From Escherichia coli (lineage in GTDB: Bacteria; Pseudomonadota; Gammaproteobacteria; Enterobacterales; Enterobacteriaceae): a stretch of DNA of 64,000 nucleotides. Positions 15,001 to 21,000 of the stretch are shown here, one piece after another (position 1 is the first letter of the stretch; each line of letters starts with the position of its first letter). The stretch lies in NCBI RefSeq assembly GCF_001677475.2, contig NZ_CP015229.1; one strand, given 5' to 3'. Made by a program: the position numbers.

Positions 15001-18000
15001 TCAAAAAATAGCTTGATTTTTTACGCACAAACTGCTTCAATTTCGCTACGCTTCGCAAAGCTGTATCGCGAGGTGAGTCTGCGCATGAACTTTAATAGAA
15101 CCCGCCTTCGAGCGGGTTTTGTTTTATTCATACGTCCGTAGTATACACTTCTGATTATATTTTCACATTCTGGCTGTTCCTGTTAAACAAAGACCGTATT
15201 GATTTTAATATTTTGTTAGATACATGGTGTTTCTTATTTAATTAGCGCGAGATGTGATGGTGGTATGTTTCTGGTTAATTAAATGAGTAAATAGATGTCA
15301 GCTAACCATGGAGGACAGCAACTCTCTGATTGACTTTTAATCATTCCTTACATTTATTTCGATGGAGGCGTTGTTATTATTTTTAAGTAAGAGGTGAAAT
15401 ATTGTGTTGAAAATGTTTATATTATTTCTTATTTCTTTCTCATGGTATGCGGATGCTACGGATTTTGTTTATAGAGTGGATTCTCGCCCGCCAGAGGAAA
15501 TATTTCGTGATGGGTTTAGATCCCATGGTTTTAACAGAAACTTACAGCAACATTTAAGAGGGGACTCATGTGCGGCAGGGAGTAGGGATAGTGCATTTAT
15601 TGCTACCACAACCAGTTTAATTGAAACATATAACATAGCCAGACAATATTATTCAAGTTCTGGATTTCACGGTAGGTTATATCGTTACCGTATCAGAGCA
15701 AATAATATTTTTTATCCTATTCAACCGTCAGTCAATTATCTAACCCAGCGCGGTATAACCTTCTCTGGATTTGAGCGGATAATGATGAGGGAGCAGAACG
15801 AGATTGTCGCGGTGGAACATATACCTGGTGAGAATATTGTTGAGGCTGTGGAGTTGACTTATGACAGATTCAACAGCCAAGTATCTGATGGACCAGGAAC
15901 CACCAATGCCAGGTATGTTCCTGGATCCACGTTTGTAAATCCAGGTGTTATACCTCAATTAGTTGTACCAACTGTATCAGTTAGAGAAAGAATCAATGCG
16001 TTTGGAAGTCTGATTAGTGCCTGTTTTGCTCTGAAGGGAGTCAGAAGAGATGGTTTAAATAAAAGAGCTACTTATTATGAACCCGAGTTTTATGATGCAA
16101 GAGGTGTGTTAAAAGAAATTATAAAATGATTCTATTGAAATGATGTGTTTATTATTTGTCTTATTAATTAACTTATCAATGTATATAAGAGGTTTTATGA
16201 AACAGAAAATGAAATATTTCTTAATTACTCTTTCATTGTTATCTGGTACCAGTCATGCAGTAATGAGTGATTATGATAAGTACTATAGTAATGTTCAGAT
16301 AAATAATTTATCATATGGCGTTTACACATCCGGGGGTAAGGAAAGTCAGTTTTTTTGTATTGGTATAAAGCGTGATAATGTGACTCTTCCCATTCACAAT
16401 ATGTGTAAGGTTGATGTTTTTGGAACTCATAAACAAGGTTTCGATGCCATGATGGAAATGGCTAAGTATTATTATGCTACTGGTGAAAGTATAAGAGTTT
16501 ATTATAAGGAAAATGTGTGGAGTGATTCCGAGTTTACAAAGGCCTTCTCTACTAACGAACTAATTTCTTTAAGTACATGTAGTTCATCTGATTATTGTAT
16601 GGGACCACAAAAAGGTACTTAATCACATAAATTTATAACTTGATATAAACTCCCATCACGCTGATTTTGAGAGGTATTTATGTCTGAACCCTTATCCGGT
16701 TCCGGTACGGCAGCGGCGCTCGGCGGGGCGACGGTATTCGGGCTGTTTACCGGAACGGATTTCGGGATTGTGTTTGGTGCGTTCGCCGGGGCGTTATTTG
16801 TGGCAACGATGCCGCAGGCGCTTTCAGCCTGGCGTGTGGCGGCGCATTTTCTGGTGTCGTTCATTGTCGGCGTGCTGGGAGCGCGTGTGCTGTCTGCCTG
16901 GATAGCGGCAAAAACAGGTTATGACGGCACATCGGCAGATGCGCTGTGTGCGGTTCTGGTATCGGTGGTGTCGGTGAAGATTCTGTCATTCATCCACCAG
17001 CAGGATATCGCATCACTGGTGTCCGGCTTGTTCTCCCGCCTGCGGGGTGGAGGAGGCGGCAATGTTAAGTAACCTTCCCGGATTGCTGAATGTGGCGTTA
17101 TGCACGGTTATCGTGCTGACGCTCTTTTTTTATCGTCGCTGTGATTCCAGACATAAACCGCTGATGTCATGGCTGGCCTGGCTGCTGATGCTGCTTTATG
17201 CCTTTGCGCCACTCAGCTATCTGTGTGGTCGTCCGTTAGCTGCGAACTGGCTGGCGGTGGGGCTTAATCTGCTGTTCTGCGTGCTGGTGATTCGTGCACG
17301 TGGGAACGTTTCAAAAATCCTTTCATTACGGAGGTGAGTATGTCGGGTAAATTCAGATTCAGCCGTCGGAGCGAGAAAAATCTGGAGGGCGTAAAACCAC
17401 AGCTGGTTGCTGTCGTTCGCCGTGCGCTGGAGCTGACGGAGGTTGATTTCGGTATTACGGAAGGTCTGCGCACGAAAGAGCGCCAGAAACAACTGGTTGC
17501 AGAAGGCAAGAGCCAGACCATGAACAGCCGCCACCTGACCGGTGATGCGGTGGATGTTGTTGCCTGGGTTGGCAGCCAGGTGTCATGGGACTGGCCTCTG
17601 TACGAGAAAATCGCGCAGGCATTTAAGCAGGCAGCGAAAGAGCTGAATACCCCCATCGAATGGGGCGGGGACTGGCGGACGCTTAAAGACGGCCCACATT
17701 TTCAATTGAAGCGATAGCTTGCAAAACATACAGGGCCGCCATGAGCGGCTTTTTTATTGCTCAAAAAACGAAAGAACGGAGGTACGTATGTACGCACTGA
17801 AAAAAATTACCGTAACTGAAGATGGTCGCCAGGTTGAGGAAGTGCATGTCCTGGGGGATATGTATCGTCTGGAGTTCTATCCGCGTGACACTCACTTGGT
17901 AGCAAAAATTGAGTATTGCCGGAGCGGGGATATTCCATGTATTCCGGTAGAAAAAGAGGATGAGGCTTACATTACCACGCTGACCGGAGATACGGTGCGT

Positions 18001-21000
18001 TGTATCTGTCGCGGTGACAGTAAAGCCAGGAATGAAATAGCCAGATGCCGCACCCAGGGCAGTAAATAAAAAAACAAAACCCCGGCTGGGGGAACAGTCC
18101 GGGGTTTTTAGTTTTCACGCCTTGAAAGGAGCAAGGGAGAACCTGTGGTCGATTTTAGCAAATTGATTCGGGAGTTGCGACTAATGATTAAGCAATTACC
18201 AAACTGGAAATTCATCATGCTCTGGCTGGTGATGTTTATCGCCTCTGTTGGCTACCTGATTGGGCAGATTCGCTGGTGGTGATATGAACCGCATTCTGTA
18301 TATGGTCATTATTGCCCTGCTGTTGGTTTGTGGTGCGCTGTGTCTGGCAACAAACCATTACCGCGATAACGCCATCACTTACAAAGCGCAGCGCGATAAA
18401 AAAGTCAGTGAGCTGAAGCTGGCGAACGCCACCATTACTGATATGCAGCAGCGCCAGCACGATGTTGCTGCGCTCGATGCAAAATACTCGAGGGAATTAG
18501 CCGATGCGAGAGCTGAAAATGAAACTCTGCGTGCTGATGTTACCGCTGGTCGTAAGCGCCTGCGGATCAACGCCACCTGTCCAGGCTCCGTGCGTGAAGC
18601 CACCGCCACCGCCCGCGTGGGCAATGATGCCAGCGTCGAACTCTCTCCAGTTGCTGGACGAAACGTTCTCGGTATCAGAGACGGAATCATCAGCGACCAG
18701 GCAGCATTGAGAACGCTTCAGGAATATATCCGTACTCAGTGCCTGAAATAGTTTTTTCAATGCGTTGTATCGTCGCCGTATTTCCGCATTAACAGAGACC
18801 GCAGCCCTACGGGGAGACTCCTCTGCGCGAGTGTGCGGGGATAATCAAAAACGATACACACCGGGGTTTACTGCGTTAACGGAGCGCGGCGTTGTCCCCT
18901 CATAGTCGCCTGGCCGGTGCGATGGTGGAAGAAACCGGAACACATTACAAAATGATAACAATTATCATTTTTCGGGTCCTCCTGGCGGGGTGGGCCTGTA
19001 CACGGGGCGGGTCGGCGCGGAAAAAAGCGCATTTTTGTGATTTTATCGTCATCATCATCATGTATGTAAACTGTTGTTTTTAATGTAATTGATACAAAAA
19101 AGATGATGATTGTGGCCAATTTTTGTTCGACATCTTTGTGTGGCGGCATTTCTTTACAAAAAAACAGAATCACTTCTGTTCAGAGGGGTATGTGGAGGAG
19201 GCGTAGATGGACGGCGAGCTGAAAAATATGAAGTTAAATATTAATCAACTGGCAGCCCTTTCAGGCCTGCACCGGCAGACCGTTACCGCAAGAATGGCGG
19301 ATGTTCCTCTTGCTCCGGGCAGTAATGAGAAGAAAAAACTTTATCTCCTGACGGACCTGATTACTGCGCTGCTGGCAAAAACACCATCTACCGAAGATGA
19401 GGAGATGAATCCACACGATCGCAAGGCATGGTATCAGTCCGAGCGCGAGCGTCTTAAATTTCAGCATGAAACTGTTCAGCTTGTCCCTGTCAGTGATGTC
19501 AGGCGGTCGTTTTCCGTCGTGGTGAAAGCCATTGTGCAGATACTGGAAACCTGGCCTGACAGGCTGGAGAGGGACAGGGGGTGGACTGCATCACAACTGA
19601 ACGAAGTGCAGATCGTTGTTGATGAGATCCGTGACACGCTGGAAAAGGCAGTGATTGCCTGCTGTGATGAGGCTGATATGTGAATCCGGTTAACGAGTGC
19701 CATAGCCGCGCATCCGATATCTGGCGCGAAGTGGCCTCGCTGTTTCGCCCGCCTGGCCGGTTACCAGTAGCGGAAGCCATCAGGCGTTATATGCGGGTAC
19801 CACGGGGAGCCAACACTTCAGGTCCGTGGGAGTCATCGCTGACGCCCTATATGATTGACCCCATTAATACATTATCAGCCCGTGAATATGACGCGGTGGT
19901 GTTTGTCGGACCGGCGCGAACCGGGAAAACCGAAGGGCTGATTGATGGCTGGATTGTGTACGGCATCATCTGTGATCCGGCGGATATGCTGGTGGTGCAG
20001 ATGACTGAGACGAAGGCGCGTGAGCATTCCAGAACGCGTCTTTCCAGGACGTTTCGCCACAGTCCGGAGGTCAGTAAGCGCCTCAGTCCTTCCCGTAATG
20101 ACAACAACGTCCACGACAAAATGTTTCTTGACGGCTCATTCCTGAAAATTGGCTGGCCGTCGATCACCGTATTTTCCTCCTCGGATTACCGTCGTGTGGC
20201 GCTGACGGATTATGACCGTTTTCCTGAGAACGTCGACGGTGAAGGGGATGCCTTCACGCTGGCATCAAAGCGTACCACCACCTTTATGTCCTCGGGGATG
20301 ACCCTGGTCGAAAGTTCGCCCGGGCGGGATATCACCGATACCAAATGGCGTTGTGGTGGCGCACATGAGGCACCGCCAACAACGGGGATCCTGTCACTGT
20401 ATAACCGGGGAGACCGCCGTCGGTGGTACTGGCCGTGTCCGCACTGTGGGGAATATTTTCAGCCGGTGATGGATAACATGACCGGTTACCGGAATAACCC
20501 TGATTTTGTGGCTGCCGGGCAGGCGGCCCGCCTGATGTGTCCGCACTGCCGCGGCCTGATTGCTCCGGAACAGAAGCGTGAACTGAATAACCAGGGGATC
20601 TGGCTGCGGGAAGGCGAACGGGCAGCGGCGGATGGCAGTATTACCGGAACCCCTCGAAATTCCAGAATAGCAAGTTTCTGGATGGAGGGGCCGGCAGCGG
20701 CGTTTCAGACCTGGGAACAACTGATTTTTAAGCTGCTGGCGGCAGAAGAAGAGTATGAGCGAACCGGCAGTGAAGAGACCCTGAAAGCGGTGGTAAACAC
20801 CGATATCGGACGACCCTATCTGCCCCGTTCAGCCACGGAACAGCGTAAAAGTGAACTGCTTGAACAGCGTGCCGAGCCGTTTCCCCGGCGATCTGTGCCG
20901 GATGGTGTGCGTTTTATTGAGGCAACGGTTGACGTACAGGGCGGTAAAAATCGCCGTTTTGTTGTGCAGATCACCGGATACGGAGAACAGGGGGAACGCT

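Follow-up and report, generated by a model that had tools for sequence, protein, structure and literature searches.

A stretch of 64,000 nucleotides (nt) of Escherichia coli DNA (NCBI RefSeq assembly GCF_001677475.2, contig NZ_CP015229.1), referred to as the window, contains the late operon of a lambdoid prophage, and a small open reading frame (ORF) of 93 amino acids (aa) that lies in this operon, directly behind an M15-family endolysin gene, is the subject of the present analysis. The ORF and its short leader are probably an optional, promoterless cargo cassette, bounded by terminators, which sits in a Q-dependent late operon and is expressed late. The evidence comes from the conservation of the gene and its flanking hairpins, from relatives in which the same site is occupied or empty, and from the sequence directly upstream of the gene.

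A conserved gene between terminator-like hairpins

The ORF extends from an ATG at 17788 to a TAA stop codon at 18067-18069, which gives 93 aa by count and not the 94 of a preliminary description; the GGAGG ribosome-binding site reported there is present, 5 nt before the start codon. The product matches PHROG 33497 over its full length (E 8.3e-56, residues 1-93 on profile positions 1-95 of 95), and 50 homologs with 47-97% identity occur in E. coli, Salmonella, Edwardsiella, Hafnia, Proteus, Xenorhabdus, and Providencia, with further proteins of the same family in Plesiomonas and Lelliottia detected by Foldseek. The reading frame is intact in 57 distinct coding sequences (CDS), and the median pairwise ratio of nonsynonymous to synonymous substitution rates (dN/dS) across them is 0.12; the ORF is a real gene under purifying selection. 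Residues M1, Y2, L4, K5, E17, G23, and E29 are invariant in the family alignment, while the block D58-A-Y-I-T-T-x-x-G-x-T-x-R71 and the pair R75-G76 are nearly so. The product had also been called Cys-rich, and five cysteines are indeed found among the 93 residues (44, 51, 72, 74, and 87), but none of the five is conserved across the family, C74 alternating with Ser. A zinc or disulfide motif was dropped as a candidate on account of this lack of conservation.

The family is a small one: a profile search of 1.8 billion representative proteins yielded 25 clusters at 50% identity, and barring polyubiquitin all of these are short proteins of the same family. The polyubiquitin chain matches in the profile search were recognised as an artefact, since their score is the sum of five to eight weak repeat matches. 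Members are nearly restricted to prophages: a single isolated phage among 50,697 records, phiSTEC1575-Stx2k, has the gene, in the same holin-holin-M15-ORF arrangement as the window. The accession WP_000271099 appears in no paper found in the literature search, the only publication that names phiSTEC1575-Stx2k is an unrelated metagenomic survey, and the portion of a Stx-phage lysis-cassette survey reached by a term search holds nothing on the gene or on the M15 endolysin.

Both hairpins that had been described on the two sides of the gene were recovered. The upstream one (17732-17752) starts 15 bases past the endolysin stop codon, read at 17715-17717, and pairs the arms 17732-17739 and 17745-17752 around the core GGCCGC, loop CATGA, GCGGC; its T-run at 17750-17755 is followed by ATT, so that TTTTTTATT spans 17750-17758. 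The downstream one (18076-18104) has the core CCCCGG...CCGGGG and runs into TTTTT at 18105-18109. A consensus scan of positions 15000 to 20000 returned 13 terminator-like sites, both cassette hairpins included, versus 4.9 +/- 2.6 in shuffled sequences. RNA folding assigned -12.8 kcal/mol (z -1.4) to the upstream hairpin, and its downstream counterpart came out at -23.2 kcal/mol (z -3.1). Between 19000 and 38000, no terminators of a strength comparable to those at 15094, 17732, and 18080 were seen.

The same bracketing was found throughout the family in 88 loci assembled from E. coli records, IMG/VR contigs, and other assemblies. A GC-rich hairpin followed by a T-run ends 24-40 nt 5′ of the ATG in every one of them, and a terminator-like hairpin follows just past the ORF stop in 75. 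For the other ORFs of these loci the baseline rate of an upstream hairpin is 15.5%, much of which is contributed by the gene downstream of the cassette; the terminator bracketing is not due to chance. Alignment of 22 distinct upstream regions revealed that 87% of the stem cells pair, versus at most 71% when the partner is slid, and that three stem positions change on both sides (GC/AU/CG), a two-sided count that was reached in none of 500 shuffles. Over 780 kb of loci, motifs of the cassette-terminator shape number 89 on the + strand and none on the - strand, a bias that directional terminators should show.

Occupied and empty sites

The 3′ end of the M15 endolysin gene was found in 246 of 5,426 complete E. 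coli genomes. In 55 of the 246 the sequence runs on into the hairpin and the ORF, and in the remaining genomes homology breaks at the endolysin stop codon. Strain 203740 (locus L013) illustrates the empty site, its endolysin stop being directly followed by the downstream terminator of the window; the 49 bases that hold this terminator (18071-18119) are 100% identical in many ORF-less E. coli genomes, strain 203740 being the one examined. In porcine strains of enterotoxigenic E. coli (ETEC), an Ant-like gene with a different terminator 5′ fills the same site. A terminator is present 3′ of the M15 endolysin gene in all three variants, whether the site holds the ORF, the Ant-like gene, or nothing. 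Other E. coli prophages carry the ORF behind a GH108 endolysin gene, usually past an unannotated Cys-containing ORF of 68 aa, and their homology to the window sets in at 17745, halfway through the upstream hairpin.

Across the loci the ORF occupies three kinds of position, and in every case it shares its strand with the late genes. It follows an M15 or GH108 endolysin gene in about 50 loci (E. coli, Edwardsiella, and relatives), lies between Q or other cargo and the holin gene in 25 (Proteus and Xenorhabdus types), and separates a MuF-like head gene from the scaffold/major capsid genes in 12, the terminase of which resembles that of Providencia/Morganella phages. The ORF is dispensable among close relatives and constitutes an optional cassette. 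The earlier proposal of an independently acquired insert is borne out by its presence or absence between homologous neighbours, by the three kinds of site in unrelated temperate phages, and by the terminators found throughout the family.

Comparison of occupied and empty relatives located the junctions. In the head-operon context (Providencia/Proteus type), 63 sites among 80 close relatives are empty and 17 are occupied. An empty site has a single hairpin, arranged as MuF stop ... AAGGTCACCTCGGTGGCC TTTTTT ATTACCTAAA ... scaffold, while the occupied sites keep this resident hairpin and its T-run, continue with leader, ORF, and a second hairpin (GGTCGCTTATGCGGCC TTTTTT), and resume at ATTACCTAAA; both junctions fall at GGCCTTTTTT of the terminators. 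In the Q context of the Proteus type, all 23 relatives have the same succession behind Q, namely a promoter-like sequence followed by a short leader and a terminator; the cargo diverges right past the T-run, and it is there that the ORF begins in three of the 23. In E. coli, the M15 and GH108 arrangements part from each other within the hairpin itself, and complementarity is kept on both sides. As judged from these comparisons, the cassette in the M15 context appears to have brought or created its upstream hairpin and to use the resident terminator downstream.

One alternative places the function in the hairpins themselves, as punctuation or as an mRNA-stability element after the endolysin gene, and regards the ORF as a passenger or a decaying remnant. 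No feature of the locus is more constant than the hairpin, and the terminator behind the M15 endolysin gene in every site variant would fit this idea. It is nevertheless highly improbable, given the strong purifying selection on the ORF (dN/dS 0.12), the frame kept intact in all 57 CDS, the conserved Shine-Dalgarno (SD) sequence, and the confidently predicted fold; moreover, an insert would contribute little extra punctuation to sites that possess a terminator even when empty.

Several further features of these loci were recorded. The 68-aa ORF (...HEVH...C...C...CxxCCxxCH; phrog_4298, annotated as of unknown function) lies at 3759-3965 in locus L003, at 4725-4931 in L010, and in about 20 further loci; it is unannotated in RefSeq for L003-L005, is a frequent immediate neighbour of the cassette gene in E. 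coli, Edwardsiella, and Proteus-type prophages, and is absent from the window. In the Proteus-type loci L175-L197, the first ~95 nt past Q hold a TTGCAA-17-CATATT-like promoter, a second -10-like TATGTT/TATATT, and the terminator ACCTCGC-N4-GCGGGG-T6. By analogy with lambda, this shared stretch resembles a P_R′/tR′ equivalent with a pause element and a very short leader. In Xenorhabdus bovienii (L009, ~4870-4945), the upstream hairpin of the cassette comes after a sequence ending in ...GGTTCGATTCTGAGAGGTTCCACCA, which resembles a tRNA 3′ end or a remnant of one. In the window itself, a short CAAAAC repeat is present at both edges of the insert (17723-17728 and 18074-18079).

Promoter, proposed expression, and precedents

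A consensus scan for sigma-70-like sites on the + strand 5′ of the ORF found none in four contexts (the window and loci L006, L077, and L003), and in the window no promoter-like site was detected on this strand from 16472 to the ORF. The 24-40 nt that separate the T-run from the ATG are filled by an A-rich leader and the SD sequence. A sigma-70 promoter overlapping the T-run (TATTAT/TATTGC) was considered and rejected, no acceptable -35 element being found at 16-18 nt in any variant. Further upstream, no conserved promoter can lie 5′ of the hairpin because the sequences there are unrelated between contexts, and a conserved riboregulator 5′ of the hairpin was dropped on the same ground. Read from its sequence, the conserved upstream element is a putative terminator, the opposite of a promoter. 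With a terminator upstream and no promoter of its own, the gene is expected to be expressed together with the late genes and not from the repressed prophage.

In the explanation put forward here, the cassette would comprise the 93-aa gene and, ahead of it, a short leader that holds a strong ribosome-binding site, with intrinsic terminators on both sides. In the lysogen, any transcription that reaches the endolysin gene would stop at 17750-17758 and the gene would stay silent. Following induction, a Q-modified, terminator-resistant polymerase starting at the late promoter would read through the terminators at 15094, 17732, and 18080, and the ORF would be transcribed only by this polymerase, along with the lysis and morphogenesis/head genes. 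The similar terminators (GC stem, tetraloop, TTTTTTATTAC) may offer short shared sequences for recombination between late operons that are otherwise unrelated; if recombination takes place at them, the cassette would therefore be terminator-flanked everywhere.

The preliminary description had taken the two hairpins as the classic signature of a moron. By definition (Cumby et al. 2012, PMC3594210), a moron is an insertion that carries both a promoter and a terminator of its own, which allow it to be expressed while the prophage is repressed. Like morons of the HK97 gene 15 type, the cassette is extra DNA that is present or absent between the same neighbours, holds one small gene that is followed by a factor-independent terminator, may deviate slightly in GC content, and lies in a late operon, in some relatives between structural genes. 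Unlike them, it lacks a promoter of its own and has a terminator immediately upstream in every locus. That the ORF is nevertheless a classical moron, expressed from the repressed prophage to the benefit of the lysogen through superinfection exclusion, defence, or immunity, is unlikely. Its presence/absence polymorphism and terminator flanks would suit such a gene, as would the near confinement of the family to prophages, with phiSTEC1575-Stx2k as the sole isolated phage, and the GC content of 0.48, which is slightly below the 0.51-0.59 of the flanking lysis genes (holins, endolysin, and Rz) and the 0.51 of the whole window, although this difference is small. In the Proteus type, in addition, the ORF directly follows a late promoter, presumably constitutive, with its terminator, and leaky read-through could be imagined there. 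What speaks against a moron is the missing promoter-like site in four independent contexts, a gap between T-run and ATG that is taken up by leader and SD sequence, and the lack of a match among the PADLOC defence models. The cassette is therefore not filed as a moron: it is an insertion with a terminator, and the promoter is wanting.

Several points weigh against the late, antitermination-dependent cassette proposed here. A weak promoter, or one not of the sigma-70 type, would escape a consensus scan, and leaky read-through of the terminator near a constitutive late promoter, as in the Proteus arrangement, could give low expression in the lysogen. The terminators, their efficiency, and their Q dependence are predictions from sequence. 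The apparent covariation of the upstream stem may come from different resident terminators instead of compensatory changes within one hairpin. The left hairpin is in many cases the terminator that already belonged to the context, so the covariation shows that a hairpin is always present, not necessarily a single hairpin with compensatory changes. In the M15 context of the window, the left hairpin arm is absent from the empty-site relatives, and a junction at a resident terminator is for this reason demonstrated only in the head-operon and Q contexts. As for the product, no homology or fold match points to an activity, and the hint of a dimer discussed below derives from a predicted template modelling (pTM) score alone, the five tandem models being uneven (mean predicted local distance difference test, pLDDT, 58-73.5).

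Stem-loops at indel junctions have their nearest mechanistic precedent in the PeSL elements of T4-type phages, composite terminator/promoter stem-loops through which modules are shuffled (PMC2839356, PMC4122927). In both systems, similar short stem-loops flank variable ORFs of unknown function and coincide with indel junctions, which suggests recombination at the motif. The cassette motif differs in being a plain intrinsic terminator without an early-promoter half, its hosts are temperate lambdoid or Mu-F-type prophages of Enterobacterales, and its repeats are not one sequence family demonstrably shared genome-wide. We know of no circular or recombination intermediates of the cassette. A bolder extension of the proposal, entertained here only tentatively, is that late-operon terminators act as portable recombination joints for a promoterless gene, which would hop to sites after Q, after the endolysin gene, and between head genes as a lambdoid counterpart of the T4 PeSL system. 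The cargo would in that event be a new late accessory factor, an ORFan all-beta protein that might, for example, counter a host system triggered by late phage proteins, and this portion of the extension is held just as tentatively.

Other late cargo of lambdoid prophages uses the same hot spots, namely AB5 toxin genes after Q/tR′ and an Ant-like antirepressor gene between the endolysin gene and Rz. The Ant-like gene of the ETEC relatives has its own terminator 5′ and replaces the ORF between the M15 endolysin gene and the small transmembrane (TM) ORF with Rz, while the ArtAB-like toxin genes of the window fill the site between Q and holin. The proteins are unrelated to the product of the ORF, and functions are known or suspected for them, whereas none is for the ORF. 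Integron gene cassettes offer a formal likeness only: they too are promoterless single ORFs with upstream transcription and a hairpin-forming boundary, but the present cassette comes without an integrase, attC features, or arrays.

Predicted protein and surrounding operon

The 93-aa protein (10.7 kDa) is hydrophilic, with a grand average of hydropathy (GRAVY) of -0.54, and has neither a TM segment nor a signal peptide. AlphaFold2 with the family alignment predicted seven antiparallel strands in a meander followed by a C-terminal helix (pLDDT 88, pTM 0.69); the Proteus and Providencia homologs, which are shorter, lack this helix. Residues 1-77 form an acidic, all-beta core with an isoelectric point (pI) of 4.9, and residues 78-93 a tail that is a basic helix with a pI of 10.9. 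A search for structural neighbours of the model returned none that was informative. When two copies were joined in tandem by a 30-residue linker, the pTM of 0.67 exceeded the expectation for two independent domains, which is compatible with a homodimer and gives a hint that the product might form one. The model suggests a small soluble binding protein, and the structure says nothing further.

Sequence searches were equally sparing. No domain match for the protein was obtained in Pfam or NCBIfam, no PADLOC-DB 2.0 defence model matched at E <= 1, and the best hit in a PDB sequence search (Rubisco small subunit, E 1.6) was noise. PHROG 33497 has no lysis annotation, and Rfam returned around the cassette only a sub-threshold 'rnk leader' match on the minus strand (E 0.39). 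The Gifsy defence protein GiPD474, described in the literature, is an unrelated ATPase located in the immunity region. The homology and structure prediction that had been recommended as a check delivered a conserved family and a confident fold, but a functional lead from neither.

Lysis timing, an accessory toxin/immunity role, and defence had been suggested as functions for the ORF; nothing found here supports any of the three, the last two having only the above blank Pfam, NCBIfam, and PADLOC searches to show. A lysis accessory protein, understood as a soluble regulator that tunes lysis timing through holin, endolysin, or spanins, is very unlikely. The ORF lies within ~1 kb of lysis genes in about 75 of the 88 loci, and in the window it stands between the endolysin gene and the small TM ORF with Rz/Rz1, as such a regulator well might. 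However, its partners belong to at least four unrelated holin/endolysin sets, comprising PF16931 and PF05449 holins with M15 or GH108, Phage_holin_3_1 with GH108, Phage_holin_3_3, and an 89-aa holin with Phage_lysozyme. The order also varies, the ORF preceding the holin gene in some phages and following the endolysin gene in others, while in the 12 head-module loci it lies between head genes. About three quarters of the E. coli genomes with the same M15 endolysin do without it, the protein has no TM segment, signal peptide, or muralytic domain, and the region from Q through the lysis genes to the terminase gene is the usual cargo site of lambdoid phages, toxin and Ant-like genes being found at equivalent sites.

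Under the cassette proposal, the product would be a small soluble cytoplasmic protein, all-beta by its model, that binds a host or phage macromolecule late in infection. It would most likely be an accessory factor of host takeover or counter-defence and not a dedicated part of lysis, and this is the weakest step of the explanation. Any specific role for the protein, counter-defence among them, is doubtful and more so than the portable joints discussed above. Taken together, what the preliminary description observed is real and general, and its interpretation is partly supported.

The features of the operon are collected in Table 1. All genes of the late operon are on the + strand, in the order Q-like gene, terminator, ArtA-like and PltB/SubB-like toxin genes, two holin genes, M15 endolysin gene, and ORF, after which come the small TM ORF, Rz/Rz1, and terminase genes; the Q-like gene and its terminator lie 2.7 kb upstream of the ORF, and the terminator-resistant late transcription that would read the cassette likely originates there. 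The earlier placement of the ORF between endolysin and Rz holds, but the 45-aa membrane ORF intervenes and Rz is not adjacent.

Table 1. Features of the cassette and its surroundings, in window positions
Feature	Position	Strand	Basis
Q-like antiterminator gene	14354..15016	+	phrog_753, E 4e-77
Strong terminator-like hairpin 3′ of the Q-like gene	15094-15123		terminator scan
M15-family endolysin gene, left neighbour	17340..17717	+	phrog_465, E 7e-75; M15 metallopeptidase annotation in RefSeq relatives
Upstream intrinsic-terminator-like hairpin and T-run TTTTTTATT, left cassette boundary	17732..17758	+	sequence, terminator scan, folding
Shine-Dalgarno GGAGG, 5 nt 5′ of ATG	17778..17782	+	sequence; SD-like AGGA/GGAG present in every upstream variant
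CDS, 93 aa, PHROG 33497 (annotated unknown function)	17788..18069	+	ORF call and profile match
Downstream intrinsic-terminator-like hairpin and T-run, putative resident terminator of the M15 endolysin cassette	18076..18115	+	scan, folding, ORF-less relatives
45-aa single-TM ORF ending IRWW, right neighbour	18145..18282	+	phrog_6632 (unknown function), E 9e-22
Rz i-spanin gene	18284..18751	+	phrog_13 / phrog_3198 matches for Rz/Rz1
Rz1 gene, embedded in Rz	18504-18710	+	phrog_13 / phrog_3198 matches for Rz/Rz1

The TGA of the 45-aa TM ORF lies 1 nt 5′ of the Rz ATG, which suggests translational coupling with Rz. Relatives without annotated Rz/Rz1 have two small ORFs with abutting stop and start 3′ of the cassette (L001 4442-4799, L003 4456-4753) or of the empty site (L013 3131-3428). 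The first is a TM ORF of 37-57 aa that ends in VRWW (phrog_4493), and the second, of 60 aa, has a lipobox-like LLVGC (phrog_7528); both families are annotated as of unknown function, and the two might form a compact spanin-like pair. The 455 nt from Rz to a DUF1441-type small terminase gene (18752-19206) hold no convincing ORF, contain GC-rich and AT-rich segments, and may harbour a packaging site or an unannotated small gene.

The toxin genes comprise an ArtA-like ADP-ribosyltransferase gene (15404-16129; NF011803, E 2e-76, below the equivalog cut-off; GC 0.39) and a PltB/SubB-like gene for an AB5 binding subunit (16140-16622; NF038397, above the cut-off; GC 0.31). Their location between Q/terminator and holin makes the prophage of the window a toxin-converting one, and in the relative RM9088 subtilase SubAB genes are found at the equivalent site. 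A sok antitoxin RNA match within the region 12781-12951 / 13113-13194 (102 bits, gathering score 59) implies a hok/sok module in the prophage, and an isrK-like match adjoining sok (30.5 bits) is below gathering.

The general lesson of this locus is that flanking terminators alone do not make a gene a moron expressed in the lysogen. An upstream terminator combined with a missing promoter points instead to strictly late expression that depends on antitermination, and the terminators look like the seams of cassette exchange. Without a functional clue for the protein, the practical importance of the finding is modest for now. If confirmed, however, it would offer a simple rule by which Q-controlled operons could be searched for promoterless cargo, and would mark out as worth testing a conserved protein family from Enterobacterales prophages, including toxin-converting prophages with Stx2k, SubAB, or ArtAB-like genes.

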